This document shows, piece by piece, positions 5,424 to 61,251 of a DNA stretch of 64,000 nt; within the stretch, counting starts at the first letter, position 1, and every line of letters begins with the position of its first letter. The translations under genes and the position numbers were made by a program. The notes beneath the pieces are model-generated. The model worked only from the letters and a program-made list of their open reading frames with translations, ran no database searches and had not been told where the DNA came from. This stretch comes from a virus, in IMG/VR virus record IMGVR_UViG_3300027754_000042, one strand, 5' to 3'.

Positions 5424-5452
5424 TTGACAAACTCTTCAAATCTGTTTATAAT
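5424..5452 (+). promoter_or_regulatory. sigma70-type early promoter for the DNA-modification pair
   Basis: TTGACA-N17-TATAAT, perfect consensus. Confidence 0.85.
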
Positions 5453-5466
5453 GCAAATAATAGAGA

Positions 5467-6762
5467 TTGGACAAAACATTGACAAAATATATTCCATACA
5501 CAGTTGACGATATCAAAAAGTCTTCAGCCCGAGAGCTATTCACCGTCGTATCCACTTTTGCTGGTGGTGGTGGTTCATCAACTGGCTATCGCATCGCCGG
5601 CGGTAAAGTTATTGCCATGAATGAATTTGTAGAAGAAGCCATAAAAACATATTCAACAAATTTTCCAGATACCAAGATTATCCCAGGCGATATCAAAAAG
5701 CTTACTGGGCTTGATTTTCTTCGTGAAGCAAATCTCAAGCCTGGTGAACTTGATATCTTCGATGGGTCACCTCCTTGCTCCGCGTTCTCTGTTGCTGGTA
5801 AACGAGAGAAGCAATGGAAGGGTGCTATAAAGAAAACCGATAGCTCGTTTGAGATTGACGAATATGGTGAGCTAGAATTCGTCGAGGGTGAGACGTTTAC
5901 GAAAACAGGCATCAAAACTTATAGTGATGGTATGGTTGTTGAAGCTATTGAAGATTTATTCCTAGAGTTCGTTCGCATCGCAAAAGATATCAAGCCTAAG
6001 GTTATCGTTGCAGAAAACGTCAAGGGTATCACAATGGGCGAAGCGCGCAAGAAGCTTGTAGAGTTTCAGAACGCATTTGAAAACATTGAACCTGGTTATG
6101 TTGTCACGCATCACGTTTTGAGCGCCGCAAATTATGGAGTTCCGCAAGCGCGTGAGAGACTGTTCTTTGTCTGTGTGCGTAGTGATGTTGCTAGTGTGAT
6201 CGGTATGAACTGGATGAATGCCGAGACAATGACAAAGCCACCCGAAACAACTCCTATCATTCGTTCTGGTGGGCGTCGTCTAAGCGAGAATAGTCAACAC
6301 ATCTCATTGCGCGAAGCAATTGAAGATATCGAAAATGATCCTGAAGAAATCCAGATGCTTAAGGATTATGTGATGGGTGGCTTTCAAAAAGATTGGATCA
6401 CGAAGCTTCCATTTAATCCCAAGCGTCATACCAAGCCGAGCGATACTGAGTATCGGTCATGGAATCCTACAGGTTCATGTTTCAATATGATTCGCCCTTG
6501 CCCAGAACTTCCATGCCCTACTCTAACGCAGAGAGGGCAACAGCTTTCTGTGTCTGGTGTGTTTCATTACGCAGAGAATAGAAAGTTTACCATCAAAGAG
6601 TTGAAACGAATCATGAGTCTTCCAGAAGACTACATATTGTCTGGAAACTTTGATAAGCAAGCAGAACGAATCGGGCGCATGGTTGCTCCTAAAATGATGG
6701 GTGCGCTTGCGTCTAACATCTACAATAAAATATTGAAACCCTATAAGGAAGCTACACAATGA
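5467..6762 (+). CDS. C5 cytosine DNA methyltransferase family enzyme, probable carboxymethyltransferase (start uncertain)
   Basis: Motif I FAGGGG, IV GSPPC, VI ENV, VIII PQARERLF; motif X reads IGRMV rather than IGNAV. Confidence 0.9.
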   Translation: MDKTLTKYIPYTVDDIKKSSARELFTVVSTFAGGGGSSTGYRIAGGKVIAMNEFVEEAIKTYSTNFPDTKIIPGDIKKLTGLDFLREANLKPGELDIFDGSPPCSAFSVAGKREKQWKGAIKKTDSSFEIDEYGELEFVEGETFTKTGIKTYSDGMVVEAIEDLFLEFVRIAKDIKPKVIVAENVKGITMGEARKKLVEFQNAFENIEPGYVVTHHVLSAANYGVPQARERLFFVCVRSDVASVIGMNWMNAETMTKPPETTPIIRSGGRRLSENSQHISLREAIEDIENDPEEIQMLKDYVMGGFQKDWITKLPFNPKRHTKPSDTEYRSWNPTGSCFNMIRPCPELPCPTLTQRGQQLSVSGVFHYAENRKFTIKELKRIMSLPEDYILSGNFDKQAERIGRMVAPKMMGALASNIYNKILKPYKEATQ

Positions 6763-7451
6763 CAGGTCAGTTCACGTTCGCGACACGCGAAGAAGGCTTT
6801 GATACGCACATCGACACATCCATTCGCGGCTACAGTGATCTGTGGCAAGACGTTGTGGATATCTCCCAGTACTTTGTTGAGAATGATACCAGCGTGGTCG
6901 ATATTGGTTGCTCGACAGGTAAGATGTTAAAGAGTATGATTAACCAGAACACGTTTGCACCTAACGCAATTTATACAGGTCTAGAGATTGAACCTGAGTT
7001 TTGGGGACCATACGATCAGGACGAAAAGGATTTCGACAACCTCACATATCACAAGGGTGATGCTAATGGGTATTATTTCGACAACTGTTCATATGTCACG
7101 TCCATCTTCACACTTCAGTTCATGCCGTACCATGATCGTATGCATCTAATCAGTCGCGTATTCAATGGATTGAACCCTGGTGGTGCTTTTGTCTTCGCGG
7201 AGAAGACGATGCCTGAGAATGTACGAATCCATGAAATTCGCACCTTTACCTATTATGATTACAAGCGCCGCACGTTTACCACCGACGATATCATGGACAA
7301 GGAGCATCAGCTCCGTCATATGACCAAACCAAACACCCGTGGCGAGCTAATCAAGGTCTGTCTAGACGCCGGCTTTCAAGCGGTTGACACCTTCTGGCAG
7401 AACCACGCCTTTACAGGGTTCATTGCGTTGAAGGGAACGACACAAAAGTAA
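6759..7451 (+). CDS. cmoA: CmoA-like carboxy-SAM synthase / SAM-dependent transferase
   Basis: FDTHIDTSIRGY, DIGCSTG, FTLQF, LNPGGAFVFAEK match the CmoA family; ATGA overlap with upstream gene. Confidence 0.8.
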   Translation: MTGQFTFATREEGFDTHIDTSIRGYSDLWQDVVDISQYFVENDTSVVDIGCSTGKMLKSMINQNTFAPNAIYTGLEIEPEFWGPYDQDEKDFDNLTYHKGDANGYYFDNCSYVTSIFTLQFMPYHDRMHLISRVFNGLNPGGAFVFAEKTMPENVRIHEIRTFTYYDYKRRTFTTDDIMDKEHQLRHMTKPNTRGELIKVCLDAGFQAVDTFWQNHAFTGFIALKGTTQK

Positions 7452-7516
7452 CATAAAATGTTTCAAAAATAATTGAAAAAACACCAAAATACCTGAAAAT
7501 AATTGGCAAACAATTT

Positions 7517-7550
7517 CAATGGCTTAGCGGAGATGATCCCTAAGCCATTG
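7517..7550. repeat. 11-bp inverted repeat upstream of early island
   Basis: CAATGGCTTAG-N12-CTAAGCCATTG. Confidence 0.7.
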
Positions 7551-7571
7551 TTTTTGCTTGTTTTTCTAGCC

Positions 7572-7600
7572 TTGACAATGAGGTGGTTCTTTGCTATTAT
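7572..7600 (+). promoter_or_regulatory. sigma70-type early promoter
   Basis: TTGACA-N17-TATTAT with extended -10 TG. Confidence 0.8.
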
Positions 7601-11539: not shown

Positions 11540-12742
11540 ATGAATACCAATCAGTCCAAGTTCCTTGAGAAAGCCATCAGCAAGTTCGGTACTGACGCAG
11601 TGGTAGCTCGTTCTGAGCTTTGCGATTTTGCTTTGGCAAGCAATTTCAAGCGGGGTTCTTATCGTTGGATTTTTAAAGACGAGTATCGTGCTAGCCATGG
11701 CAAGTACAAGCTGCCTGCCGTCTCTGGCGCTGCTAGTGTTGATACTACGTCCATTGCTGCTATGGCGGCCGATATCGTTCCCATTCGCAAGGCTCAGCCA
11801 GTGGTTACCACTACCAAGTTCGATCCTAACGCCGTGTCGGAGCATGATTATGCTGCGGTGCCCGAGAAGGACAAGAACTATGTGCCTTTTGGCGAGTTCA
11901 AGATGATCGAAAAAATCATTGCGTCTGGCAAGTTTTTCCCTGTGTTTATTTCTGGGCATTCTGGCAACGGCAAGACTTTCATGGTTGAGCAGGCTTGCAG
12001 CAAAGCCAAACGAGCCATGATCCGTGTGCAGATGTCGCGTGAGACCGACGAGGACGATCTGATCGGTGGTTTCCGTCTTATCAATGGCGAGACCAAGTTC
12101 ATGAAAGGCCCGGTACTTCGTGCGATGGAAATCGGTGCTTTGCTTCTGATTGACGAGGCCGACCGTGCTGATCCTGGCAAGGCTATGTGCCTCCAGGGTA
12201 TCCTCGAGGGCAAGTCTTACTATGTGAAGAAGACTGGTGAGATTGTAAAGCCAGCCGATGGCTTTAATATCATGGTCACTGCAAACACCAAGGGCCGTGG
12301 CTCTGAGGATGGGCGTTATGTTGCTGCGACCATGCTTGACGATGCTTGGCTTGAGCGTTTCCCGATCACGGTCGAGCAGGAATATCCTACTGTCCAGATC
12401 GAAAAGAAGATCCTCGTCAACTATCTTGGCAAAGATTTGCCCGAGGCTGATGTTTCGTTCATCGACCATCTGACCGTCTGGTCTGAAATCATCCGCAAGA
12501 CCTTTGCTGATGGTGCCATTGATGAACTCATTTCCACTCGCCGTCTGGTGCATATCGCACAGACGTTCCTGATGCTCGGTGACCGCATGAAGGCCATCAA
12601 GTTCTGCATTAACCGTTTCGATGAAGAGACCAAGACCGCGTTCCTTGATCTCTATAGCAAGGTTGATCCTACGATCAATCCCATCCCCGCCACTCCGGCA
12701 GTTGATGCTGCCTCGGAGAAGTCTCAGGAAATTTCTTTCTGA
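11540..12742 (+). CDS. MoxR/CobS-like AAA+ ATPase
   Basis: GHSGNGKT Walker A, LLIDE Walker B, TANTKG, ISTRRL. Confidence 0.9.
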   Translation: MNTNQSKFLEKAISKFGTDAVVARSELCDFALASNFKRGSYRWIFKDEYRASHGKYKLPAVSGAASVDTTSIAAMAADIVPIRKAQPVVTTTKFDPNAVSEHDYAAVPEKDKNYVPFGEFKMIEKIIASGKFFPVFISGHSGNGKTFMVEQACSKAKRAMIRVQMSRETDEDDLIGGFRLINGETKFMKGPVLRAMEIGALLLIDEADRADPGKAMCLQGILEGKSYYVKKTGEIVKPADGFNIMVTANTKGRGSEDGRYVAATMLDDAWLERFPITVEQEYPTVQIEKKILVNYLGKDLPEADVSFIDHLTVWSEIIRKTFADGAIDELISTRRLVHIAQTFLMLGDRMKAIKFCINRFDEETKTAFLDLYSKVDPTINPIPATPAVDAASEKSQEISF

Positions 12743-12773
12743 GATTAATATAACCTAAATTATGGAGAAATAT

Positions 12774-12980
12774 ATGTCACAGTTGTCCTTGATTGAAAAG
12801 CACCTTCGTCGTAACAACACCGGTCCTGGTGTCACTGTCGCTAAGCTTTCTAAGCTCACTGGCATTTCTAAGGAAGGTATCTATAAGCGTGTTAGTGACC
12901 TTCGCGAAGCGCACACAATCTACAGCAACTACCGCAAGGTAAATGGCGAGCGCAAGCTTTACTATCGCATCGCTGCCTAA
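12774..12980 (+). CDS. small winged-helix/HTH DNA-binding protein
   Basis: VTVAKLSKLTGISKEGIYKRVSDLR helix-turn-helix pattern. Confidence 0.65.
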   Translation: MSQLSLIEKHLRRNNTGPGVTVAKLSKLTGISKEGIYKRVSDLREAHTIYSNYRKVNGERKLYYRIAA

Positions 12981-12990
12981 TTTATGCTAT

Positions 12991-13022
12991 ATAGGGTGGG
13001 GAGCATTCCTCACCCTATTTTT
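12991..13022 (+). terminator. intrinsic terminator
   Basis: ATAGGGTGGGGA/TCCTCACCCTAT stem followed by T-run. Confidence 0.8.
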
Positions 13023-13036
13023 AATGGAGTCTAAAA

Positions 13037-13273
13037 TTGAATAACGATGAAATTCCCTACGCCCATCTTCGTGGTCTGAGTGTTACAGTTCGGAACAATG
13101 ATATCAATGGTGCATTGCGCGTCCTGAAGAAGAAAATTCAAGCTGATGGTATAATGCGAGACCTTTCTGAGCGCGAACATTACACGAAGCCTTCCATGCA
13201 ACGCCGTCTGAATAAAATTCAGGCTATTCGCCGTTGGAAAAAGAAGCAGCAGGAAGCTGCTGAACAGCTTTGA
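13037..13273 (+). CDS. rpsU: ribosomal protein bS21
   Basis: VTVRNNDINGALRVLKKK...REHYTKPS signature. Confidence 0.9.
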   Translation: MNNDEIPYAHLRGLSVTVRNNDINGALRVLKKKIQADGIMRDLSEREHYTKPSMQRRLNKIQAIRRWKKKQQEAAEQL

Positions 13274-13314
13274 ATTTCCATATATATTATTGCAATTTTT
13301 AACATGGAGTCGTT

Positions 13315-14172
13315 ATGTCCGCACTAGAAGTTTCTGTAACAATTGAAGAACTACGCAAGCGTAAGATTTTAGTAGCCACACCTATGTACGGCGGTATGTG
13401 TGGTGGTACATATACAAAGTCAACTGCCGATCTTGCGTCCATGGCAGCACAGTATGGCATGGATGTTCGCTTCTATTATCTCTTCAATGAATCCCTAATT
13501 ACTCGTGCGCGAAATTACCTCGTGGACGAATTTCTGCGTTCTGATTGTACTCACTTGATGTTCATCGACGCCGACATTGGTTTTGATCCGAATGATGTTA
13601 TTGCATTGTCGGTCATTGCGGAAGCTGGCAGTGATAAGGAAATCGTATGTGGTCCGTATCCCAAGAAATGTATTGCTTGGGAAAAGATCAAGCGCGCGGT
13701 CGACCGTGGCTTCGCTGACAAGGATCCAGAGAACCTCGAGAAGTATGTTGGCGATTATGTTTTCAATCCTAAGGAAGGATCTGGATCCATTGCTCTCGAT
13801 CAACCAGTAGAGGTGCTTGAAGGTGGCACTGGCTTTATGATGATCCAGCGTTCTGCGTTGGAAAAGTTTGCAGCCGCTTACCCACAATACACATATCTGC
13901 CTGACCATGTGCGTACCGCACACTTTGATGGTACCCGCGAAATCATGCAGTTCTTCCAGGCTGAGATTGATCCTAAGTCTAAGCGGTACCTATCAGAAGA
14001 TTATTGGTTCTGCCAGAAGATGTGGGACATCAATGTGAAGACATGGCTTTGCCCATGGATGAAGCTTCAGCACATGGGTTCATATGTGTTTGCTGGTTCT
14101 CTTATTGATCTGGCTCAGATCGGCGCTGGTGCTACCGCTGACGTAGGTGAATTAGCTCCTCGTAAAAAGTAA
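13315..14172 (+). CDS. GT-A fold glycosyltransferase-like protein
   Basis: ATPMYGG, ESLITRARN, FIDADI (DxD), GTGFMMI, LSEDYWFC. Confidence 0.8.
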   Translation: MSALEVSVTIEELRKRKILVATPMYGGMCGGTYTKSTADLASMAAQYGMDVRFYYLFNESLITRARNYLVDEFLRSDCTHLMFIDADIGFDPNDVIALSVIAEAGSDKEIVCGPYPKKCIAWEKIKRAVDRGFADKDPENLEKYVGDYVFNPKEGSGSIALDQPVEVLEGGTGFMMIQRSALEKFAAAYPQYTYLPDHVRTAHFDGTREIMQFFQAEIDPKSKRYLSEDYWFCQKMWDINVKTWLCPWMKLQHMGSYVFAGSLIDLAQIGAGATADVGELAPRKK

Positions 14173-14173
14173 C

Positions 14174-14202
14174 TTGACATTCGCATTCACACCTGCTATT
14201 AT
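14174..14202 (+). promoter_or_regulatory. sigma70-type promoter
   Basis: TTGACA-N17-TATTAT. Confidence 0.75.
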
Positions 14203-14228
14203 GATTATCTTGAGTGAAGGAATATACC

Positions 14229-14900
14229 ATGAAAATCTCTAAGACCACAATCGACGTACTAAAGAATTTTGCGACAATCAATCCCAGCATGTTGTTTTCT
14301 GCTGGCTCAGAATTGAAGACGGTCTCACCACAAAAGACCGTCTTCGCAAAGGTAAAGATCGAAGATACAATCGACACTGAATTTGGTGTCTTCGATTTGT
14401 CTCAGTTCATTAATGTTTTGAGTGACTACGAAAATCCCGATATCTCTGTCAATAACACGTTCATCTCCATCACAAATGGAACTGGCGATATCTCAGATAT
14501 CGTTCGTGCAAAGGCAGAGCTTCTTCCCAGTCTTCCTACCAAGGAAGTTACTCTACCTTCGGTCGATGTAGCTTTTGTTCTGGAAGCAGCGAAGCTTCAA
14601 AGAGCATTGCGTCAAGCTTCGCTTCTCGTTCTGCCAGAAATTGCTCTTGTTGGTGAACATGGTAACGCATACTTCTGCGCTATTGATTCGCGCAGCGATT
14701 CCACGAATCGTTTCAAGAGCCCTGTAGGCAAGGCTGAGAAGAGTTATAAGATGATCTTCAAGGTTGATAACCTTAAGGTCATGGGTGGTAAGGACTATGA
14801 TGTGAAGGTATCTTCAAAGGGTATCGCATACTTTGCATCCACTGATGGCATCTGTCATTACTGGGTCGCAACGGAATCTGGTTCGTCTTTTGATGCCTAA
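14229..14900 (+). CDS. gp45: sliding clamp gp45
   Basis: MKISKTTIDVLKNFATINPS N-terminus, FGVFDLSQF, YWVATE. Confidence 0.93.
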   Translation: MKISKTTIDVLKNFATINPSMLFSAGSELKTVSPQKTVFAKVKIEDTIDTEFGVFDLSQFINVLSDYENPDISVNNTFISITNGTGDISDIVRAKAELLPSLPTKEVTLPSVDVAFVLEAAKLQRALRQASLLVLPEIALVGEHGNAYFCAIDSRSDSTNRFKSPVGKAEKSYKMIFKVDNLKVMGGKDYDVKVSSKGIAYFASTDGICHYWVATESGSSFDA

Positions 14901-23843: not shown

Positions 23844-24055
23844 AAGACGACGAATACGATTTTGGCTTTACATTTTCTGACACCGAAGAAATTAAAAGTC
23901 AGGCTGTTGACAAGGCAGAAGGCTTGCGTAAGATGATTATGCCATTGCTGAATAACTTGATGAAGAATCCTGAAAAGGATACCATCGTATGGCCTAACCG
24001 GGATAAGACAATCAAAACTTTCATCAAGAAGATGGATGACTACATGAAGTCCTGA
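23840..24055 (+). CDS. conserved hypothetical protein
   Basis: DFGFTF...LLNNL..NPEKDTI.WPNR; ATGA overlap. Confidence 0.7.
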   Translation: MKDDEYDFGFTFSDTEEIKSQAVDKAEGLRKMIMPLLNNLMKNPEKDTIVWPNRDKTIKTFIKKMDDYMKS

Positions 24056-50410: not shown

Positions 50411-50776
50411 ATGTCATATTGGGGTTATCACCTCCTATTGGACTGCGCTGAATTGGATCACGCAGCAATCACAGATGCGGAGAACATCTATTATTTCGTC
50501 AAGCGTTTGGTCAAAGATATTGATATGGTCGCTTATGGTGAACCACATATTGTTAACTTTGGCTCAGGCAACAAGGCCGGCTACACATTGGTACAGTTAA
50601 TCGAAACATCAAATATCGTAGCGCATTTTGTGCCAGATGATGGCATGGGTGGTAATGCTATGTACCTCGATGTTTTCTCATGCAAGGAATATGACGATCA
50701 GATTGTTATTCAGTTGGTCAAGGAATATTTTGGTGCAAAGTATGTGCGTCCAAACTATCTCACAAGACAGGCGTAA
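50411..50776 (+). CDS. speD: S-adenosylmethionine decarboxylase proenzyme-like
   Basis: GYHLLLD, LIETS cleavage region, LDVFSC. Confidence 0.8.
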   Translation: MSYWGYHLLLDCAELDHAAITDAENIYYFVKRLVKDIDMVAYGEPHIVNFGSGNKAGYTLVQLIETSNIVAHFVPDDGMGGNAMYLDVFSCKEYDDQIVIQLVKEYFGAKYVRPNYLTRQA

Positions 50777-50824: not shown

Positions 50825-50899
50825 GCGGGCGTAACTCAGTGGTAGAGTGTCAGCCTTCCAAGCTGTTCGTCGCAGGTTCGAACCCTGTCGCCCGCTCCA
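50825..50899 (+). tRNA. tRNA-Gly(TCC)
   Basis: Cloverleaf, loop CTTCCAA, encoded CCA. Confidence 0.95.
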
Positions 50900-51012
50900 A
50901 GTTTCACGAGTGGCTAGAAATGGCCCTCGTGATTGCTATCTGTAACTGGATGGCATTGAGCGTAGGAATCTTCCTACTTTTATATAATGTCTTTTTAGAC
51001 TAAGGAGTAAAT

Positions 51013-51558
51013 ATGAAAAACACAATCACTACCATCTTCGCACTTGCACTAAGCACTTCCGCTTATGCAACTGACGTACCAAGCGGCAAGGTCGCTCCAA
51101 AGGCTCCCGTACCCGTCTTCGTAAGCGCCGACAATTATATCGGTGTTAATGTCGGAGCGAATGTCACTGATGGCGTCAACAAACAAGCTCCTACAGCTTT
51201 CGGCGTTATTGCAGGTCGTAAGGTTCTAGGTTTTGGTCCTATGGGTTTCACAGCAGAAGCCGCATATGATTACACCAAGGGCAATACTAACATGGTTTCA
51301 GGCAATGCGCTTGTATCATATGCGTTTGGTCCTTTCTCTCCATACGCTCTTGGCGGTGTTGGCTATCGTTTTGTTGATAGCAAGCTTCCTGTTCGTGTTG
51401 GTGGTCCTAAGAATGAGGCAGTTTGGGCAGCTGGTGGTGGTATTAAGTTTGCGGTCACGTCCGCAATTGAGCTTGATGCTCGGTACCATCGCGTAGAAAA
51501 CTTTGACTACAAGCGTCCCGAAGATCGTGTGTCTCTTGGAGTTAATTATAAGTTCTGA
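51013..51558 (+). CDS. Omp25/RopB-like outer-membrane beta-barrel
   Basis: Signal peptide AYA, Pro-rich linker, PYALGGVG, terminal YKF. Confidence 0.85.
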   Translation: MKNTITTIFALALSTSAYATDVPSGKVAPKAPVPVFVSADNYIGVNVGANVTDGVNKQAPTAFGVIAGRKVLGFGPMGFTAEAAYDYTKGNTNMVSGNALVSYAFGPFSPYALGGVGYRFVDSKLPVRVGGPKNEAVWAAGGGIKFAVTSAIELDARYHRVENFDYKRPEDRVSLGVNYKF

Positions 51559-52691
51559 TGATGAAAATATCCCTCACTGCGGATAAGTTCGGTTATTATG
51601 AGGTGGGGGGTAGAACCACATATAGTAAAATGGAAGCCCTTGAGTGGGCTTCCACTACTAACATGAAGGCGGAGTGGAATTTTAATCGCTCCGCCTTTGA
51701 GTCTATGGATTGGAAGAAAGAGCCTACTGGTTCTCTTTGGGAAATGTACAAAGAGAGAGCGAGGCAAATCCGTGAAGAATACGATTATGTTGTATTATGG
51801 TATAGCGGAGGTTCTGATAGTCATAATCTACTTTGGGCATGGTTGGATGCAGGTCTTAAAATAGACGAGATTGCAACAACATGGAATTACGGTGCTACTG
51901 GCGATAAACAGAATCACTATAACGCAGAAATCACAAATGTGGTTTTGCCAGATATCGCAATGCTGAAAAATGCTGGTTACGAATTCGAGTTTCGTTTGAT
52001 TGATATCTCACATTTCTGTATAAAACTTTTTAGTACATGGAATACAGAGTTTGAATATAACGTCAACTTCCATCTCAGTCCAAACAATCCTGCAAAACAC
52101 ATATTCCGAAATGAGATTGACGATTATAAAAACATGATCGCTGATGGTAAGAAGTTATGTTTTGTTTGGGGTAAAGAAAAGCCAGTTCTTCAATATGAGA
52201 ACGGTAAACATTTCTTCGTGTTTTCCGATAACATTGACAACACGGTTGGTCCATATGTTCAGAAAAAGTATCATCAAGGGTGGTATGATGAGCTATTCTA
52301 TTGGACACCTGATATGCCACAGCTGGCTATCAAGCAAGCGCATGTTCTAAAGAACTATGTGGAATCATGTATTGACGAATCGCAGTTCGAACCAAAGAGC
52401 GACACTAAATTTCAAACAGGTGGCTATTCGAAACGATTCGATGGGTATCTAAAAGATGCATATGTCAAGACAGCTATATATCCAAAATGGTCAAATGATA
52501 TTTTCTGTAATGGTAAAGCTGGATCTATGACATATAGCCAGCGTGATAGATGGTTCATCAAGTCGTCATTGCTCGAAAGACATAAGTTCATGTCAATAAT
52601 GGATTCAATATATTCAGGTATCTATAAGAAAGATTTCTACGACAGACATAATTATTATCCATTTTACAGCTCAAGGTATTTTTTAGAATGA
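51558..52691 (+). CDS. PP-loop (adenine nucleotide alpha-hydrolase-like) protein
   Basis: LWYSGGSDS. Confidence 0.7.
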   Translation: MMKISLTADKFGYYEVGGRTTYSKMEALEWASTTNMKAEWNFNRSAFESMDWKKEPTGSLWEMYKERARQIREEYDYVVLWYSGGSDSHNLLWAWLDAGLKIDEIATTWNYGATGDKQNHYNAEITNVVLPDIAMLKNAGYEFEFRLIDISHFCIKLFSTWNTEFEYNVNFHLSPNNPAKHIFRNEIDDYKNMIADGKKLCFVWGKEKPVLQYENGKHFFVFSDNIDNTVGPYVQKKYHQGWYDELFYWTPDMPQLAIKQAHVLKNYVESCIDESQFEPKSDTKFQTGGYSKRFDGYLKDAYVKTAIYPKWSNDIFCNGKAGSMTYSQRDRWFIKSSLLERHKFMSIMDSIYSGIYKKDFYDRHNYYPFYSSRYFLE

Positions 52692-53140
52692 ACAAATTTT
52701 ATGAGACGCACACGCGCACGATAGCGAAGACGCTGACGATCAGAGTTCTATTCACTCTAAGCCATCTCTTGAATGGATTCATCGTTACCGGTAGTTTCGT
52801 TATTGGAGCGCAGATTGCAGGCGTAGCAGCCATCATCAATATGGTTTTATTTTGGATTCACGACCGTGCGTGGGAATTTGCGGCATTCAATAGAAAACCA
52901 GGTGACACCAAGTTATTTGTTGACGGGCACCCAAGAACTATTAGCAAGAGCATAACGTGGCGGGCACTAATCACAATCAATAATTTTATGATTCCATTCA
53001 TAATGACTGGCTCTTGGCAATCGGCTATAGCGTTCCTAGGAATAGCTACCGTACTAAATATTATCGTATATTATGCTCATGAACGAGTTTGGAATGGTGT
53101 TGTTTGGGGAAAGAGAGAAAAAGATGTCGTTCAGCAATAA
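52688..53140 (+). CDS. tandem DUF2061-like membrane protein
   Basis: Two copies of RTI.K....R...H(D/E)R.W. Confidence 0.75.
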   Translation: MNKFYETHTRTIAKTLTIRVLFTLSHLLNGFIVTGSFVIGAQIAGVAAIINMVLFWIHDRAWEFAAFNRKPGDTKLFVDGHPRTISKSITWRALITINNFMIPFIMTGSWQSAIAFLGIATVLNIIVYYAHERVWNGVVWGKREKDVVQQ

Positions 53141-54500
53141 AACATTTTGTACGATGCCTTGGTCGTCTATTATGATTTTGCCATCAGGTGATTTCAAGAT
53201 TTGTTGTTTCACAGGCCACAAGACATCAGATGGTCGTGATAGCCATGGTGTTGCTATAGATGATGACGGCAATTCAATGAATGTCCTGACGCATTCTATC
53301 AAAGAAGCAATGAATAGTAAATGGCATAAAGAATTGCGAGTAGCGCAGTCACAAGGCAAGCGCCACGAGATATGCAAGGTGTGTTGGGATCGTGATGATG
53401 CCGCAGCGACACATGATGAGGCTGCAACATCATTGCGCGTCGTGCGAACCTACTACCAGAATGCTGATAGCGGAACAAATCAATCCCGTAAACATTTTGG
53501 TGGGCATCCTATGACGGGTGCTGTTCTACCTGAGACTGCATCTGATATCATGACCGCTGGTGGTTCGATTGACATGATGCCAATCAGCTTGGATATGCGC
53601 TTTAGCAATCTATGCAATGCTAAATGCATCATGTGTGAACCTCTCTATAGCACACTTTGGTACGGAGATCAAATCGACGTAAATCAAAAAGATTTTTTTG
53701 ATGTAGGACCAAAACGATATAACATCATTACCAAAACATCTCCTACCGGCCGCAAGACATATACCGATGACATGCCAAATTGGAATGATGACCCTCGTTG
53801 GTGGAAACAGTTTGATGAACTAGCACCACATCTTCGTCACGTTTATATCACAGGTGGCGAACCTTTCATCCAGCCTGTCCATGATGTATTCATCGAAAAG
53901 CTTGTCGAGCGCGGCTTCGCAAAAAACATTATCATCGAATATGATACCAATCTCAGCGTTTTGAATCCAAAGATTTTGAATTATCTCACAGAGTTCAAAG
54001 ATGTTATCATTCGCATCAGTGCCGATGATGTCGGCGAAAGGTATAACCTTGTTCGCTTTCCATTGAAGTTTGATCGCATCACCAAGAACATAGAACTACT
54101 AAAGGAATATGGGCTCCACGAAAAAATTGTCAATATCACATCATGCATTGGTATTCATACCATTTTTGCTCCACTTACCATTCACAGATATTTTAGTGCG
54201 CTCGGCTACGATAAGTATGTGTTCCGTATCCTTCGCTCTCCACCACAGGTCGATATCATCAATCTACCTCGAGCGGCCAAAGAAGCCGTGATAAAAATTT
54301 ATGAGCAATCGGATCTTCCGCATTCAGACCAAAAGCATGTTGTTGGTTATCTGAAAAACAATCTGGATGCTCTATCAGATGAAAAGGCGCGAAATCAAAT
54401 TTCGATTTTCAGGCATTATATGAATTCTCTCGATCGGTCGCGTGGCACAGATTGGCGTGCTACAATACCCGAGGTGGACGCACTTATTGCTAAGTTCTAG
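53124..54500 (+). CDS. radical SAM protein with N-terminal twitch/SPASM-like domain
   Basis: FCTMPW, CC, CKVC; CNAKCIMC; TGGEP. Confidence 0.88.
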   Translation: MSFSNKTFCTMPWSSIMILPSGDFKICCFTGHKTSDGRDSHGVAIDDDGNSMNVLTHSIKEAMNSKWHKELRVAQSQGKRHEICKVCWDRDDAAATHDEAATSLRVVRTYYQNADSGTNQSRKHFGGHPMTGAVLPETASDIMTAGGSIDMMPISLDMRFSNLCNAKCIMCEPLYSTLWYGDQIDVNQKDFFDVGPKRYNIITKTSPTGRKTYTDDMPNWNDDPRWWKQFDELAPHLRHVYITGGEPFIQPVHDVFIEKLVERGFAKNIIIEYDTNLSVLNPKILNYLTEFKDVIIRISADDVGERYNLVRFPLKFDRITKNIELLKEYGLHEKIVNITSCIGIHTIFAPLTIHRYFSALGYDKYVFRILRSPPQVDIINLPRAAKEAVIKIYEQSDLPHSDQKHVVGYLKNNLDALSDEKARNQISIFRHYMNSLDRSRGTDWRATIPEVDALIAKF

Positions 54501-54524
54501 TGGTGTGATAATTTAGCAACACCA
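54501..54524. repeat. palindrome before second early island
   Basis: TGGTGT-N12-ACACCA. Confidence 0.45.
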
Positions 54525-54547
54525 AATCATCTAGTGGTTAGGGCGCC

Positions 54548-54576
54548 TTGACAATAGGCCCCCTTTCTGGTATTAT
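54548..54576 (+). promoter_or_regulatory. sigma70-type early promoter
   Basis: TTGACA-N17-TATTAT. Confidence 0.75.
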
Positions 54577-54648
54577 AGGGATATGAGTTGAGGTTAAGGC
54601 ATGAGCGTAGCAATAACGAGCGTATCACAGTTTGTTACCATTATTACC

Positions 54649-54677
54649 TTGACAATCAAGCAGAAGCCTAGTAAGAT
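54649..54677 (+). promoter_or_regulatory. sigma70-type early promoter
   Basis: TTGACA-N17-TAAGAT. Confidence 0.65.
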
Positions 54678-54707
54678 GGTTATAGAGTCAGAAAACGGAG
54701 CTAAAGC

Positions 54708-54854
54708 ATGACAATAGAATATATCTTCGAAACCTTTCGTGCGCTTGAGACTGTTGCAGAGCGTGTTACATACTTGCAAGAACTTGCAACTCTTTCGCTG
54801 CCGTACGATATCAATTATGAAGCGTTAATCCGTGCATGGCTTGCATCAGAATAA
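54708..54854 (+). CDS. small hypothetical protein (48 aa, not in ORF track)
   Basis: SD GGAG, own promoter. Confidence 0.55.
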   Translation: MTIEYIFETFRALETVAERVTYLQELATLSLPYDINYEALIRAWLASE

Positions 54855-54912
54855 ACAAAGATCGTAACATAAACAATTACAAAAATAACCGTCAAATCGC
54901 CGCTAGGTGCCA

Positions 54913-54941
54913 TTGACAATCCAATCCGCTCCTAGTAGAAT
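54913..54941 (+). promoter_or_regulatory. sigma70-type early promoter
   Basis: TTGACA-N17-TAGAAT. Confidence 0.75.
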
Positions 54942-54971
54942 ATAAAAGTAGGGTGAAATCAGAGGTACATC

Positions 54972-55505
54972 ATGAACTTTAAGCAAGCAGATCCGGTCGT
55001 CAACCTTCTCAAGGCTAATGGCAACCGCTTTACTCCCGCGCAGCTTGACGCCGCGACGGGTTCCGAACGCCGCTCCCGTCGGGCGCTGTTTCTCGCTCGT
55101 CAGATGGGTCTGGCTATCGAGGCAGTTCGTGATGGCGGCCGTGGCGTTACCGCTTACGTCCTTGCGTCTGGCGACCTTAGTGCCATTCCTGTCGCAGCGC
55201 CCAAAGCTGCTAAGGTCAAGGCTCCCAAGGTTGTAAAGACGCAAGCGCCGAAGGCGGTCAAGGACAAGGCGGTCAAGGTTGTCGATACCTCTCGTCTGTC
55301 CGACGAGGCTAAGGCGGCAGTCAAGGCTAAGAACCTTGAGACCATGAAGGTTGTGTCTGCCAAAAAGCATCCTATCACCAAGCAAGCCATGACCAAGACC
55401 CAAGAAAAGGTTCTTGAGGAGTTTGCCCGAATGGAATTGGCAGACAAGATCGACCCGCGTGAATATATGCCCGCCTTCCTTCTCAAGGAATCTTATAGCG
55501 AATAG
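54972..55505 (+). CDS. HTH-like protein with Lys/Ala-rich linker
   Basis: FTPAQLDAATG...; APKAAKVKAPK repeats. Confidence 0.65.
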   Translation: MNFKQADPVVNLLKANGNRFTPAQLDAATGSERRSRRALFLARQMGLAIEAVRDGGRGVTAYVLASGDLSAIPVAAPKAAKVKAPKVVKTQAPKAVKDKAVKVVDTSRLSDEAKAAVKAKNLETMKVVSAKKHPITKQAMTKTQEKVLEEFARMELADKIDPREYMPAFLLKESYSE

Positions 55506-55533
55506 CAGCTTAATTTAAGAGTACCACAGGCCC

Positions 55534-55562
55534 TTGACAATCAAGCCCGTCTGTGGTATCAT
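55534..55562 (+). promoter_or_regulatory. sigma70-type early promoter
   Basis: TTGACA-N17-TATCAT; inverted repeat TACCACAG/CTGTGGTA overlaps it. Confidence 0.75.
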
Positions 55563-55576
55563 TAAGTTAAGATGAA

Positions 55577-56242
55577 ATGAACACGGAGAACATGGCCATG
55601 ATTAAGCTTTCCAAAGCCTCTAAAATGCCCGCCAAATCCTGGTCGCTTCAGGCTCGCAAGACCTGCCCCGGTTCTATCGACCCGGTGACAAAGGCCCCGG
55701 TTGAGGTGTGCGCTGGCTGCTATGCCACCGAAGGCTTCTACCAGATGCCTGACGCCATCGCATTGCGCGAACACAACCGCGAGGATTGGAAGCGCCCGGA
55801 GTGGGTTGATGATATGGTCAAGGAGTTGAAGCGCCAGAAATTTTTCCGTTGGTTCGACTCGGGTGACGTTTACCACCCGGCTTTGGCTTTCAAGATTTTT
55901 CTGGTCATGCAAAAAACTCCTCACGTCCAGCATTGGCTGCCCACGAAGTCTTACAAGGTCCCGCGCATCCGTGCGATCCTTGAGCGGATGAAGGCCCTGC
56001 CGAACGCAGCGGTTCGCTATTCGTCGGACTTTATCAATGGCGCTTTTGAGCATGGTGAGCATGGCTCAACGGTTGTTCCGTTTGCCGACTCCGAGACCGA
56101 AGCGTCCAAGGTGTGTGACGCATATGAGCGTGGTGGCAAATGTGGCGATTGCCGCGCTTGCTGGAATAAGGATGTGGCTGTGGTCGCGTACCCCGCGCAC
56201 GGTCGCCGTATGGGCAAGATTATGAAAAATCTTGCAGCCTAA
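55577..56242 (+). CDS. GP88-family Cys-rich phage protein
   Basis: SKMP, TCPGS, CAGCYA, FRWFDSGD, WLPTK, CGDCRACW. Confidence 0.8.
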   Translation: MNTENMAMIKLSKASKMPAKSWSLQARKTCPGSIDPVTKAPVEVCAGCYATEGFYQMPDAIALREHNREDWKRPEWVDDMVKELKRQKFFRWFDSGDVYHPALAFKIFLVMQKTPHVQHWLPTKSYKVPRIRAILERMKALPNAAVRYSSDFINGAFEHGEHGSTVVPFADSETEASKVCDAYERGGKCGDCRACWNKDVAVVAYPAHGRRMGKIMKNLAA

Positions 56243-56245
56243 GGG

Positions 56246-56274
56246 TTGACAATCCTGCCAGTTCGTGGTATTAT
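56246..56274 (+). promoter_or_regulatory. sigma70-type early promoter
   Basis: TTGACA-N17-TATTAT. Confidence 0.75.
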
Positions 56275-56300
56275 GGTAATATGATGATGAATGGAGAAAA

Positions 56301-56567
56301 TTGATGGCGCAAGTAGCAACCAAGTCAGTTTCGATCCGTAAGATCATGGCTCGCCCTACCTTTCTACAGGGTGTCCGTGATGCCGCGAACGGTCTAGGTT
56401 TTTGCTCCGATTACGATGATTTTTCCACAGCGGAACAGTGGTCGTATGAGCGAGGTCGGTTGTTTTATTTTGCTACGGGACTCAAGGCGTTCCGTGCAGG
56501 AGCTGGCGTAAGGCGTGAAGCCATCGTTCTCTATAAGTTTGGCCGTGCCAGCTTGTCCATTCTCTGA
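56301..56567 (+). CDS. hypothetical protein
   Basis: QWSYERGR motif; SD GGAG. Confidence 0.65.
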   Translation: MMAQVATKSVSIRKIMARPTFLQGVRDAANGLGFCSDYDDFSTAEQWSYERGRLFYFATGLKAFRAGAGVRREAIVLYKFGRASLSIL

Positions 56568-56575
56568 GGTGTCAA

Positions 56576-56785
56576 ATGAACCAGTTTTTGTCAAAGGATC
56601 CTGCGACGGCTATCACGGAAATCAAGGCTCGGTTGTATGACCGCCTAACCCGTAGCCGTCACCTGTTGCACCAATACGATTCCCCTATGGCAGGACTGTC
56701 TGGTTCCGAGCTTGGGTATCGCGCTGGGCTCCATGAGGAAATTATGTACCTAGAGCGTCTCCTAAACGATATCGAAAACAGCTAA
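56576..56785 (+). CDS. hypothetical protein
   Basis: SD GAGGT. Confidence 0.6.
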   Translation: MNQFLSKDPATAITEIKARLYDRLTRSRHLLHQYDSPMAGLSGSELGYRAGLHEEIMYLERLLNDIENS

Positions 56786-56793
56786 AATAGACC

Positions 56794-56822
56794 TTGACAA
56801 TCCCGTCCCGACCATATAAAAT
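56794..56822 (+). promoter_or_regulatory. sigma70-type promoter
   Basis: TTGACA-N17-TAAAAT. Confidence 0.7.
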
Positions 56823-56841
56823 AAAAATAATGGAGAGTGTG

Positions 56842-57045
56842 ATGCAATTTTTAGCCAAACCTAATCTAAATAACACCACTGGTCAGAAGGTGTTCGATAC
56901 GTTAGCCGAGGCCGTTAAGTACCTAGAATACAAAACTGGGCACAAAATGGACTTTGTTGTCGATAGAAAGACGAAGGTAAAAACCTATGACTGGGAAATC
57001 ATCGGTAAGCTCAAGCGGATCAAAGCGCAACCCGATTGCGATTGA
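56842..57045 (+). CDS. hypothetical protein
   Basis: SD GGAG. Confidence 0.6.
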   Translation: MQFLAKPNLNNTTGQKVFDTLAEAVKYLEYKTGHKMDFVVDRKTKVKTYDWEIIGKLKRIKAQPDCD

Positions 57046-57187
57046 TTTGGCTACTACTAAATACCATGCTCGTGTCGTTGCATCTCGCAAAGGCTACAAG
57101 CGTAAAGGTCGCGTAGCTCAGCTGGATAGAGCAACGGATTTCTACTCCGTGGGCCGAGGGTTCGAATCCTTCCGCGACCGCCACTAA
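56987..57187 (+). CDS. ArfA-like basic peptide reading through tRNA-Arg
   Basis: KRNPIAIDL...RV...K.GYKRKG resembles ArfA; SD GAAGGT 8 nt upstream. Confidence 0.45.
   Translation: MTGKSSVSSSGSKRNPIAIDLATTKYHARVVASRKGYKRKGRVAQLDRATDFYSVGRGFESFRDRH
57107..57183 (+). tRNA. tRNA-Arg(TCT)
   Basis: Cloverleaf, loop TTTCTAC, CCA. Confidence 0.95.
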
Positions 57188-57203
57188 CAAAGAGGTTGAC
57201 AAG

Positions 57204-57569
57204 GTGACAAAGATCGTTTATAATGGTTGCTTCGGTGGCTTTGGTTTGTCCGATGCCTGCATTCGTAGATACCTTGAGATAAAGGGTGTCCCTTTTACCG
57301 AGGAAGAGTCCGAAGTTAGTTTTCGCAATGTCCGATTCCGTATCGGTACTAGCGTAATGAATGAGGGTGAATTTTTCAATGATTGGAATATTGAGCGGAC
57401 AGATCCTGTTCTTGCTCAGGCCGTAGAGGAACTTGGTAAAGCTGCGTCTGGCTATTGTGCTGACCTGTGCATCCGTGAGTTAGCACCTGGTACGCGGTAC
57501 ATTCTGCGAGAGTATGACGGTTCCGAATGGATCGAAACCGAAGATGAAATGGAATGGAGTGTAGCATGA
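57204..57569 (+). CDS. conserved phage protein
   Basis: KIVYNGCFGGFGLS, RTDPVL, EYDGSE. Confidence 0.8.
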   Translation: MTKIVYNGCFGGFGLSDACIRRYLEIKGVPFTEEESEVSFRNVRFRIGTSVMNEGEFFNDWNIERTDPVLAQAVEELGKAASGYCADLCIRELAPGTRYILREYDGSEWIETEDEMEWSVA

Positions 57570-57820
57570 TCCGCATTGCAGCCGTCTCAGCATTAGCCCT
57601 CGCGCTCGCGGGCTGCAATGCGACCGTGTATGGTCCTCGCCCTACCATGGATGTTTACGTTCCGCCTCCGCGGTATATCGCGCAGGAGCCAGTGTATATA
57701 CCACAGCCTGTTCCTAGGCCGTATTATGCACCACTCCGACGCCCGCGGTGTGCTACTGTGTGGAATCGCACTCCTCATGGGTATGTAGAGCGTCAGGTTT
57801 GCGGGAACCATATCCCGTAA
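57566..57820 (+). CDS. Pro-rich lipoprotein
   Basis: Lipobox LAGC; P/Y/R-rich. Confidence 0.65.
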   Translation: MIRIAAVSALALALAGCNATVYGPRPTMDVYVPPPRYIAQEPVYIPQPVPRPYYAPLRRPRCATVWNRTPHGYVERQVCGNHIP

Positions 57821-57827
57821 AGATTTC

Positions 57828-57904
57828 GGACTCTTAGCTCAGTTGGTTAGAGCAGCGGTCTTTTAAACCGTTGGTGCTGGGTTCGAGTCCCAGAGAGTCC
57901 ACCA
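57828..57904 (+). tRNA. tRNA-Lys(TTT)
   Basis: Cloverleaf, loop CTTTTAA, CCA. Confidence 0.95.
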
Positions 57905-57909
57905 TATAA

Positions 57910-57987
57910 CCTCCGTTGGTGTAGCGGTCCAACATACCCGCCTTTCAAGCGCGGAGATCATCGGTTCAAATCCGATACGGAGGACCA
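57910..57987 (+). tRNA. tRNA-Glu(TTC)
   Basis: Cloverleaf, loop CTTTCAA, CCA; irregular anticodon stem. Confidence 0.9.
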
Positions 57988-57998
57988 AAAAAGAATGG

Positions 57999-58055
57999 TT
58001 GACAAAAGAGTGCCAATATGCTACTATATAAGAATAGAGAATACGCTGTTTGACA
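57999..58055 (+). promoter_or_regulatory. tRNA-operon promoter followed by rrn boxA-like element
   Basis: TTGACA-N17-TACTAT; GCTGTTTGACA at 58045-58055. Confidence 0.65.
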
Positions 58056-58129
58056 TTGCTGGTAAAGAAAAAGAAACGCCGGGGATTCCTGCTTTTAGAG
58101 TAGGGATTCTTACCCCATCGTGGGTGTAA

Positions 58130-58236
58130 CGGTTGTTTCTTCTAAAAGAGCTATGCGATGCTGCCACATCGTTAGTGGCAGCTACAAGATATCTCGTATG
58201 GGGTATGCAAGATAGCTCTTTTAGAAGAAACAACTG
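58130..58236 (+). ncRNA. structured RNA closed by a 23-25 bp stem
   Basis: 58132-58154 is the exact reverse complement of 58212-58234. Confidence 0.7.
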
Positions 58237-58431
58237 ATTAGGTATGGTGTTATGGAAAATCCCAGTGTTCCTGGGCAGCGCACAGTCCCTGGAGCCCTCT
58301 GTCCTGCAGGCACGGCATAAACTGAGTTGTAACTGAAAAGTGGGGTTGCTCCCACGCATAAGGTTACAGATTAAAGCGAACGGTATGACAGTCTATCCAT
58401 ATCCATAACATAACACCATGCCTAATCAGTT
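58232..58431 (+). ncRNA. structured RNA closed by a 23 bp stem
   Basis: 58232-58254 pairs with 58409-58431 with one G-U; internal hairpins. Confidence 0.7.
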
Positions 58432-58433
58432 TT

Positions 58434-58510
58434 CGGAGATTGGCTCAGTCTGGTAGAGCATCGCGTTTGGGACGCGAGGGTCGCAGGTTCGAATCCTGCA
58501 TCTCCGACCA
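58434..58510 (+). tRNA. tRNA-Pro(TGG)
   Basis: Cloverleaf, CCA. Confidence 0.96.
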
Positions 58511-58515
58511 ATTTA

Positions 58516-58591
58516 GGACCATTAGCTCAGCTGGTAGAGCAGGAGACTCTTAATCTCTTTGTCGCAGGTTCGATCCCTGCATGGTTCACCA
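58516..58591 (+). tRNA. tRNA-Lys(CTT)
   Basis: Loop CTCTTAA, CCA. Confidence 0.95.
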
Positions 58592-58596
58592 AATGA

Positions 58597-58671
58597 TGGG
58601 GCATAGCTCAGTGGTAGAGCAAACGCTTGATAAGCGTTAGGTCGCTGGTTCGGATCCAGCTGTCCCAACCA
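58597..58671 (+). tRNA. tRNA-Ile(GAT)
   Basis: Loop TTGATAA, CCA. Confidence 0.95.
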
Positions 58672-58717
58672 AATGCATATATAAACTATAATAGCATTCG
58701 TTGTTATTATAGTTTGA

Positions 58718-58793
58718 TTCTCGATAGCTCAGTTGGTAGAGCGTCTGACTGTTAATCAGAATGTCCCTGGTTCGAGCCCAGGTCGAGGAGCCA
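58718..58793 (+). tRNA. tRNA-Asn(GTT)
   Basis: Loop CTGTTAA, CCA. Confidence 0.96.
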
Positions 58794-58796
58794 ATT

Positions 58797-58908
58797 AGAA
58801 GAGGCGGTATCGGTGGAGCTTCATAGCTTGTTTCACGAACACCGAGAGAACATCCCATTGGTCGTGCGATGGTATTCAAGTATCCCTAATGCTGGGAACG
58901 CCTCTTCT
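58797..58908 (+). ncRNA. unidentified multibranch ncRNA
   Basis: 10 bp closing stem AGAAGAGGCG/CGCCTCTTCT plus three internal helices. Confidence 0.6.
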
Positions 58909-58918
58909 TCTCATTCAC

Positions 58919-58993
58919 GGTCCGTTAGCTCAGCGGTAGAGCAACGCTTTTACACGGCGAAGGTCGGCGGTTCAATCCCGTCACGGACTACCA
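58919..58993 (+). tRNA. tRNA-Val(TAC)
   Basis: Loop TTTACAC, CCA. Confidence 0.95.
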
Positions 58994-59069
58994 GGGGGTA
59001 TAGCTCAGTTGGGAGAGCGCCTGCTTTGCAAGCAGGATGTCGTCAGTTCGATTCTGGCTACCTCCACCA
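58994..59069 (+). tRNA. tRNA-Ala(TGC)
   Basis: G3-U70 pair, CCA; no spacer after tRNA-Val. Confidence 0.96.
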
Positions 59070-59070
59070 T

Positions 59071-59177
59071 TTCAGGACTAACAGTAGAAGCAAATGGTTA
59101 CCTACTGTGAATGGCAGCAAGATGCTGGGCGACCCGATAAATCCTAACCATAGGTTGCATCTAGTCAAGATCCTGAA
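59071..59177 (+). ncRNA. unidentified multibranch ncRNA
   Basis: Closing stem TTCAGGA/TCCTGAA, internal helices, possible loop-loop pairing. Confidence 0.6.
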
Positions 59178-59185
59178 TTCAATTT

Positions 59186-59262
59186 GTCTCGTTAGCTCAA
59201 CTGAATAGAGCATCGGTCTACGAAACCGAAGGTTGGGGGTTTGACTCCCTCACGGGACTCCA
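59186..59262 (+). tRNA. tRNA-Arg(ACG)
   Basis: Loop CTACGAA, CCA; A19/U56 variant. Confidence 0.93.
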
Positions 59263-59272
59263 TATCGCGTAT

Positions 59273-59316
59273 GGGATGGTGTGGTTTGGCGAGGCCTGTG
59301 TACACAACACCATCCC
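59273..59316 (+). other. intergenic hairpin
   Basis: GGGATGGTGT/ACACCATCCC 10 bp stem. Confidence 0.55.
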
Positions 59317-59325
59317 TCTAGTTTT

Positions 59326-59401
59326 GCCCTTATAGCTCAGCTGGTAGAGCAACTGATTTGTAATCAGTAGGTCCGGAGTTCGAATCTTCGTGGGGGCACC
59401 A
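59326..59401 (+). tRNA. tRNA-Thr(TGT)
   Basis: Loop TTTGTAA, CCA. Confidence 0.95.
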
Positions 59402-59402
59402 T

Positions 59403-59570
59403 AATTCGAAGGGATGAGATCCTTTGCGTCACCACCTAACCTGGGTTCAAGCGGCCTTGGTGGATATAGGCTGCGGCCGCCTGAAGAGACCGAGTTACTT
59501 GGACCGTCTTGTCTCAGAACCTGTTGCGCGAAAAGGCAACGCTGGATGGCAGTAACCAGTACCGAAATTT
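59403..59570 (+). ncRNA. unidentified GC-rich ncRNA with possible pseudoknots
   Basis: At least five helices fill the Thr-Asp spacer. Confidence 0.55.
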
Positions 59571-59645
59571 GCTCTTGTACGCATCTGGTGAAGCGACCCC
59601 TCTGTCTAAGGGGTGAGGAGGGTTCGATTCCCTTCAAGAGCGCCA
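59571..59645 (+). tRNA. tRNA-Asp(GTC)
   Basis: Loop CTGTCTA, G73, CCA. Confidence 0.92.
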
Positions 59646-59665
59646 TAAAAAATGAAGGATCATAT

Positions 59666-60628: not shown

Positions 60629-60695
60629 TCCAACTGGTAGAGGCACCGGATTTAGGTTCCGGGTGGTGGGAGTTCGAATCTCTCCAGGGGCACCA
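60619..60695 (+). tRNA. tRNA-Leu(TAG), short variable loop
   Basis: Loop TTTAGGT, A73, CCA. Confidence 0.9.
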
Positions 60696-60710
60696 ATATA
60701 AGGATGCATT

Positions 60711-61236: not shown

Positions 61237-61251
61237 ATTTAAAGGTATATC

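Follow-up and report, generated by a model that had tools for sequence, protein, structure and literature searches.

What would a phage make with a carboxy-S-adenosylmethionine synthase encoded directly behind a C5 DNA methyltransferase (C5-MTase) in which the Asn of motif X has become Arg? A two-gene unit of this kind, here called cmoX-cmoA, lies in IMG/VR virus record IMGVR_UViG_3300027754_000042, of which we analysed a stretch of 64,000 nucleotides (the window). The first gene encodes the C5-MTase homolog CmoX and the second the homolog of CmoA, the enzyme that makes carboxy-S-adenosylmethionine (Cx-SAM) from S-adenosylmethionine (SAM). The pair is very probably the DNA cytosine carboxymethylation operon of this phage, as predicted from its genes. 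In the mechanism that we propose, the operon would be transcribed early and CmoA would convert host SAM and prephenate into Cx-SAM. CmoX would then flip out its target cytosine, attack C6 with Cys104 of its SPPC motif and pass the carboxymethyl group from Cx-SAM to C5, with Arg404 holding the carboxylate of the cofactor. The product, 5-carboxymethylcytosine (5cxmC) in phage DNA, would serve as a shield from host restriction.

A pathway of this type has been described by Yang et al. (Nat Commun, December 2025; PMC12783734), namely CmoA-CmoX-CmoY of Synechococcus phage S-B43. The S-B43 synthase, SpCmoA, turns SAM and prephenate into Cx-SAM with a kcat of 2.33 per s, and SpCmoX, whose structure is PDB 8YF3, carboxymethylates the cytosines of GC sites at C5 (PMC12783734). 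SpCmoX takes only Cx-SAM and not SAM; its Arg350, which replaces the motif X Asn, binds the Cx-SAM carboxylate, and the R350N mutant is dead (PMC12783734). The third enzyme, SpCmoY, is a glutaminase-less asparagine-synthetase homolog that ligates glycine onto 5cxmC, and S-B43 virion DNA contains only the amide 5gcxmdC and no 5cxmdC (PMC12783734). The modification shields phage DNA against restriction and is also a handle for more modification (PMC12783734). An initial annotation of the window had proposed that the phage makes its own Cx-SAM and writes 5cxmC against restriction and possibly as a handle, and had pointed to a similar recent phage pathway. That pointer was sound: the 2025 publication demonstrates the same mechanism experimentally in the homologous S-B43 pair and reports both roles for the S-B43 pathway (PMC12783734), and in the window the mechanism is predicted by homology. 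The window pair thus belongs to the published CmoA/CmoX system, and the pathway itself is not new. It is nonetheless instructive that a DNA hypermodification pathway whose experimental description came only in late 2025 can be recovered from sequence alone.

The assignment of CmoX is carried by its motifs and by its fit to the S-B43 enzyme. As the initial annotation had it, the protein is a C5-MTase homolog: it matches PF00145 (5e-51) and TIGR00675 (1.5e-39), and motifs I (FAGGGG), IV (GSPPCSAF), VI (AENVKG) and VIII (QARER) can be read directly. Motif X reads AERIGRMVAP, with ERIGRMV at its core, and the Arg codon stands exactly where it had been placed, its residue aligning with Arg350 of 8YF3. 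Against the crystal chain 8YF3_A the match has E = 7.6e-103 and 46% identity, and F25, E47, F48, D69 and C98 of SpCmoX are kept in the window protein as F31, E53, F54, D75 and C104. From these correspondences we infer the carboxymethyltransferase activity of the window enzyme.

The CmoA-like nature of the neighbour, also claimed at the outset, is borne out as well. Its best NCBIfam matches are the two CmoA equivalogs, TIGR00740 (8.5e-26) and NF011995 (3.5e-20); it matches phrog_4752 at 2e-53 and the structures PDB 4GEK, 4IWN and 1IM8 at 1e-19 to 3e-18. With the assayed SpCmoA it shares 48.5% identity over its full length (231 residues, E = 1.5e-68). Among the cofactor-binding residues listed for E. 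coli CmoA (PMC3663124), Y39, D62, G64, S66, D117, F137 and E164 are identical in the window protein, D89 is Glu, and N90 and N132 are hydrophobic, the same as in SpCmoA.

The two proteins are also inherited together. In a small sample of 24 IMG/VR relatives (42-99% identity) and cultured phages, the motif ER.GRMV.P is present in all 24 IMG/VR relatives, and cmoA lies no more than two genes away in every one with a long enough flank, within the conserved order gp46-PDF-cmoX-(cmoY)-cmoA-CobT, where PDF is peptide deformylase. Among cultured phages, the Arg and an adjacent cmoA occur together in five lineages: S-B43, RN05-S, S-CRM01, Pseudomonas phage PaBG and Moraxella phage Mcat8. Outside the CmoX group, the most similar C5-MTases are those of Methylophilales phage Melnitz (L033:3498-4715) and Flavobacterium phage Fpv5 (L035:2384-3451). 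They have Leu (ARIGLMV) and Met (LIGMSV), respectively, at the Arg/Asn position, and there is no CmoA homolog anywhere in either complete genome. These Leu and Met homologs may have relaxed or different cofactor use. The co-occurrence across homologs that the initial annotation offered as a check therefore holds throughout the sample: Arg comes with cmoA, and the Leu/Met proteins come without it. This result agrees with the published survey, in which 4,257 of 5,615 CmoX candidates had CmoA (PMC12783734), and adds little to it. The IMG/VR sample numbers and the names S-CRM01, RN05, PaBG and Mcat8 were not found in the supplementary files of PMC12783734.

Other settings of cmoA were also seen. 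In Erwinia phage vB_EamM_Y3 (L036, record 12641-14309), cmoA adjoins an asparagine-synthase-like gene with no C5-MTase nearby, the sole PF00145 match being a 742-amino-acid open reading frame (ORF) about 18 kb away; many cmoA-bearing Erwinia and Dickeya jumbo phages may share this layout. In an SPbeta-like Staphylococcus phage (L037:4983-6682), cmoA stands beside a C5-MTase with the canonical SPC rather than SPPC, for which the motif X alignment is not confident.

The anatomy of the window pair is that of a self-contained operon (Table 1). The promoter and the ATGA coupling that had been reported are both there to be read. The peptide deformylase gene ends at 5416, and only two perfect promoter matches occur in the first 20 kb, the one ahead of cmoX among them. 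Near-perfect sites recur in other intergenic gaps of the plus strand, at 3131, 7572, 8894, 11266, 11479 and 14174, which fits early promoters of a T4-like phage. The start of cmoX is ambiguous between two in-frame TTG codons, no ATG or GTG being available ahead of motif I; we favour the second, which gives the N-terminus MTKYIPYT, because it fits the N-termini of homologs. To the initial annotation we add a terminator that closes the unit: the fold of 7505-7572 has -26 kcal/mol and z = -4.41, none of 200 shuffles being as good, and the next promoter follows at 7572-7600. RNA cover is confined to 6684-6958, where two 151-nt contigs of a single metatranscriptome lie, together with one contig whose run type is uncertain. 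One 151-nt contig from a freshwater metatranscriptome crosses the cmoX-cmoA junction at at least 99% identity, which gives a weak hint of co-transcription and expression, DNA carry-over being possible. Elsewhere in the operon no RNA contig was seen, an absence that is uninformative either way.

Table 1. Sites of the cmoX-cmoA unit and of the comparison with cmoY-bearing relatives, in window coordinates
Feature	Position	Strand	Details
Sigma-70-type promoter, TTGACA-17 nt-TATAAT	5424..5452	+	12/12 consensus; within the 50 nt between the peptide deformylase gene and cmoX
cmoX	5467..6762	+	C5-MTase homolog; 431 aa from TTG 5467 or 427 aa from TTG 5479
Catalytic Cys codon TGC, SPPC motif	5776..5778	+	C104; counterpart of SpCmoX C98 by 8YF3 alignment
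Clade-specific insertion after motif IV	5803..5910	+	29 alignment columns, within residues 113-148
Target-recognition region	6190..6561	+	Residues about 242-365; 35% identity to SpCmoX, 27 gapped columns
Motif X Arg codon CGC	6676..6678	+	R404 (from TTG 5467); aligned to SpCmoX R350
ATGA overlap	6759..6762	+	cmoX stop TGA 6760-6762, cmoA start ATG 6759-6761; translational coupling, read in the sequence
cmoA	6759..7451	+	Carboxy-SAM synthase homolog, 230 aa
Intrinsic terminator	7517..7565	+	14-bp-class hairpin (7517-7550), then U-tract UUGUUUUUGCUUGUUUUU
Empty syntenic site	23844..23854	.	DNA polymerase gene and next ORF abut; G004 has a CmoY gene between

Several observations weigh against this reading of the operon or of its product. 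First, window CmoA scores below the curated cut-offs of both equivalog models (91.1 versus 193.3 bits for TIGR00740 and 72.5 versus 285 for NF011995). Even so, the CmoA models remain by far its best matches, and the CmoA homologs that we checked from Staphylococcus, Erwinia and Moraxella phages likewise fall below the TIGR00740 cut-off. Second, R199 of E. coli CmoA, a ligand of the Cx-SAM carboxylate, pairs in the sequence alignment with Glu182 of the window protein (window 7302-7316, residues 182-186). All phage CmoAs have Glu at this position, and because the active SpCmoA is one of them, the substitution counts no more against the window protein than against SpCmoA. Every phage CmoA, SpCmoA included, has an invariant Arg four residues past that Glu (Arg186 here), which may be a shifted carboxylate ligand. 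The remaining points concern what becomes of 5cxmC: the closest relative outside the 99% cluster, record G004 (CmoX 75% identical), has cmoY 18 kb away; the scanned share is about half of an estimated 180-kb genome, which leaves room for a distal cmoY; and the phage has four PP-loop proteins with unassigned functions that could act on the carboxylate.

These last points feed the strongest alternative, that 5cxmC is only an intermediate and that an amide ligase encoded elsewhere, either a distal CmoY or a PP-loop protein of the family of P0001 (see below), makes an amide such as 5gcxmC. We regard this as possible, though it falls distinctly on the doubtful side. The glycine amide is, after all, the only form in S-B43 virion DNA (PMC12783734), and the nearest relatives outside the 99% cluster have cmoY, in a variable position: between cmoX and cmoA (L007-L015 and L025), just upstream of cmoX (L016, L018, L019 and L024), or immediately behind the gene for the DNA polymerase (in G004, the contig that carries L006). 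In the tree of CmoX, the window protein groups with L004 and L005 and next with the cmoY-bearing L006 and L016, so that a recent loss of cmoY or a distal copy are both possible.

Against a distal ligase stand the searches themselves, whose target was a PF00733-type, glutaminase-less PP-loop protein of about 270-290 amino acids. All three cmoY positions of the relatives are empty in the window. A tblastn search of the 64 kb with SpCmoY gave a best E of 0.15, and the scanned window ORFs contain no PF00733 match. A further 26 kb upstream could be read from lake-metagenome contigs of the Joint Genome Institute (JGI) that are 99.9% identical to the window, and these too have no match to the G004 CmoY and no PF00733 or CmoY-like match; about 90 kb were thus examined. 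Near-identical contigs of up to 80.6 kb are present in the JGI lake metagenomes 3300009155, 3300009161 and 3300027770. The same CmoY and PF00733 scans detected the positive controls S-B43, G003, G004 and G005. Moreover, S-CRM01 (178.6 kb) and RN05-S (206.5 kb), both complete genomes, encode cmoA-cmoX and gave no PF00733 or asparagine-synthase-like match, with S-B43 again detected as a control, which means that ligase-free systems exist. Between its two genes RN05-S cleanly lacks the cmoY that its sister S-B43 has there. A 139-kb relative, estimated to be 78% complete, is also without cmoY, and a 34.6-kb relative record (G001) matched neither cmoX nor an asparagine synthase and is uninformative.

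The PP-loop proteins of this phage form a second part of the same argument. P0001 (51558-52691) has 377 amino acids, an SGGSDS PP-loop and more than 300 unnamed metagenomic homologs; it belongs to no Pfam or PHROG family and has no match in 50,697 phage records. Its structural model is confident (predicted local distance difference test score, pLDDT, 91.5), and the weak best matches of that model are carbapenam/beta-lactam synthetases, MnmA, LarE and NAD synthetase; we class it as an adenylating enzyme with an unassigned substrate. The synthetase matches favour a ligase role for P0001, as does the presence of three more PP-loop proteins in the same phage, 19-24 kb upstream of the window. However, in a profile comparison P0001 resembles CmoY over 31 PP-loop columns only, and because its homologs occur in cmoY-positive (G003) and cmoY-negative (G002) records alike, it does not behave as a substitute; as a candidate for that role we rejected it. 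A bolder variant would have the expanded P0001 family supply new amide ligases for the 5cxmC handle.

The three upstream PP-loop proteins sit in an enzyme island of the same phage (L053:2749-9941), some 16.5-24 kb ahead of the first window position and just upstream of gp13. The island encodes two P0001 paralogs (352 and 400 amino acids), a 266-amino-acid generic PP-loop protein, a fatty-acid-hydroxylase-like protein, two TctC/Bug-like proteins and two 2-oxoglutarate-Fe(II) oxygenases; it has no CmoY orthologue. The 266-amino-acid protein (L053:4240-5040) was considered as a CmoY and set aside, with weak generic PP-loop matches and no PF00733.

Because no CmoY orthologue appears in the roughly 90 kb examined, we lean towards free 5cxmC as the form left in the DNA; whether it is the end product in this phage, rather than the glycine amide of S-B43, is nevertheless close to an even call. 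The fuller proposal, that the phage represents a ligase-free lineage like S-CRM01 and RN05-S, with terminal, negatively charged 5cxmC in its virion DNA and a target motif other than GC, is plausible at somewhat less than an even chance. If true, it would give a native phage a state so far shown in none, S-B43 having only the glycine amide. More generally, cmoY takes four different positions among the relatives and is missing from two complete cultured genomes and apparently from this phage, which indicates that it is mobile and dispensable, and natural DNA with unamidated 5cxmC is likely to exist.

A second alternative assigns CmoA to translation: Cx-SAM would let the CmoB of the host make uridine-5-oxyacetic acid at position 34 (cmo5U34) on phage tRNAs, and the MTase would be an ordinary 5-methylcytosine enzyme. 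The original function of CmoA is tRNA modification, and the 20 tRNA genes in the window include Pro-UGG, Val-UAC, Ala-UGC, Thr-UGU and Leu-UAG, anticodon classes that carry cmo5U in E. coli. Yet cmoA is translationally coupled to the MTase gene and, in relatives, linked to the motif X Arg; MTase homologs without the Arg are also without cmoA; the window has no CmoB (best tblastn E = 0.44); and SpCmoX is unable to use SAM (PMC12783734). We consider the translational explanation very unlikely, although a side benefit of CmoA for tRNA is possible. That CmoA mainly drains the SAM of the host to counter its defences, in the manner of phage SAM lyases, with DNA carboxymethylation secondary, is scarcely credible: Yang et al. 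raise it as an open question (PMC12783734) and an early promoter stands ahead of the unit, but it leaves unexplained the strict co-inheritance with a Cx-SAM-adapted MTase.

With cytosine carboxymethylation retained as the probable function, the next question is where the mark would be placed. The catalytic parts of window CmoX are 52-74% identical to SpCmoX, and its target-recognition region is far more divergent (Table 1). Because these regions diverge, the GC specificity of SpCmoX cannot be transferred to the window enzyme; the observed/expected ratio of the GC dinucleotide, 1.19, holds no usable signal on the target motif. The insertion after motif IV is common to L006 and L007 and absent from L018_p1, L022 and SpCmoX. 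Some relatives carry a tandem cmoX pair, one window-type and one SpCmoX-type, before cmoA (L018:688-2941, L019:3518-5771 and L021:3968-6221); in L020 the second tandem copy has no N-terminal part, and L023 starts too near its contig end to show a first copy. The L018 paralogs are 60-71% identical in their catalytic parts and 29% in the recognition domain, which suggests two target specificities in one phage. CmoX comprises at least two clades that differ in their recognition domains, and these are possible sources of sequence-specific carboxyl-tagging enzymes.

The operon sits in a familiar genomic setting. The window covers the module in which a T4-like phage keeps its replication and early genes, all of them on the plus strand; their products include a UvsW-type helicase, gp47 and gp46 homologs, peptide deformylase, CobT/CobS-like proteins, a clamp loader, a family B DNA polymerase, UvsX, a gp41 helicase and a class II ribonucleotide reductase, followed by the tRNA cluster. 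Upstream, the additional 26 kb contain structural genes and the enzyme island. The source is a freshwater T4-like (Kyanoviridae-type) phage, and metagenomes of fresh water and of lakes, produced by many studies from 2017 to 2023, contain a near-identical operon. Two members of the 20-gene tRNA cluster (50825-62877) are of suppressor type: the tRNA at 57910-57987 has anticodon UCA and reads UGA, and that at 61919-61993 has anticodon CUA and reads UAG; despite these, all window genes are open under code 11. In and around the tRNA region are additional SAM-related genes, encoding an AdoMet decarboxylase homolog (50411-50776) and two radical SAM proteins (53073-54500 and 59414-60628), one of them with a SPASM domain.

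This locus makes three modest additions to the published pathway: an architecture that seems to do without CmoY, a recognition domain that has diverged, and the Leu and Met variants in the nearest homologs outside the CmoX group. Its closest experimentally described counterpart is S-B43, with which it shares the two core enzymes (46% and 48.5% identity), the SPPC motif, the motif X Arg, the Cx-SAM contacts and a location among the replication genes of a T4-like (Kyanoviridae-type) genome. The two differ in gene order, which is cmoX-cmoA with an ATGA overlap in the window and cmoA-cmoY-cmoX in S-B43; unlike S-B43, the window phage has no detected CmoY and comes from freshwater lakes, and unlike SpCmoX, its CmoX carries a 29-column insertion behind motif IV and has diverged in the target-recognition region. 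S-CRM01 (NC_015569) and RN05-S (PV261924) resemble it in having an adjacent cmoA and Arg-type C5-MTase with no ligase, and differ in the opposite gene order and in CmoX proteins that are 44-46% identical to that of the window; our literature searches found no characterisation of their cmoA-cmoX units.

Other systems share single features with it. The engineered carboxymethyltransferase M.MpeI N374K/R (Wang and Kohli 2021, as cited in PMC12783734) likewise has a basic residue in place of the motif X Asn, which permits use of Cx-SAM, but it was made in the laboratory by mutating a CpG methyltransferase and draws on host CmoA rather than on a natural dedicated operon. The E. coli CmoA/CmoB system for tRNA cmo5U34 (PDB 4GEK) offers the fold and chemistry of CmoA (E = 1e-19), with SAM-binding residues kept; there R199 has no counterpart kept at the aligned position in the window protein, and the acceptor enzyme is CmoB, whereas here it is a DNA C5-MTase homolog. 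Canonical C5-MTases such as M.HhaI and M.HaeIII share the fold and motifs I, IV, VI and VIII with window CmoX, but have GN(A/S)V in motif X where it has GRMV, and the cofactor predicted here is Cx-SAM.

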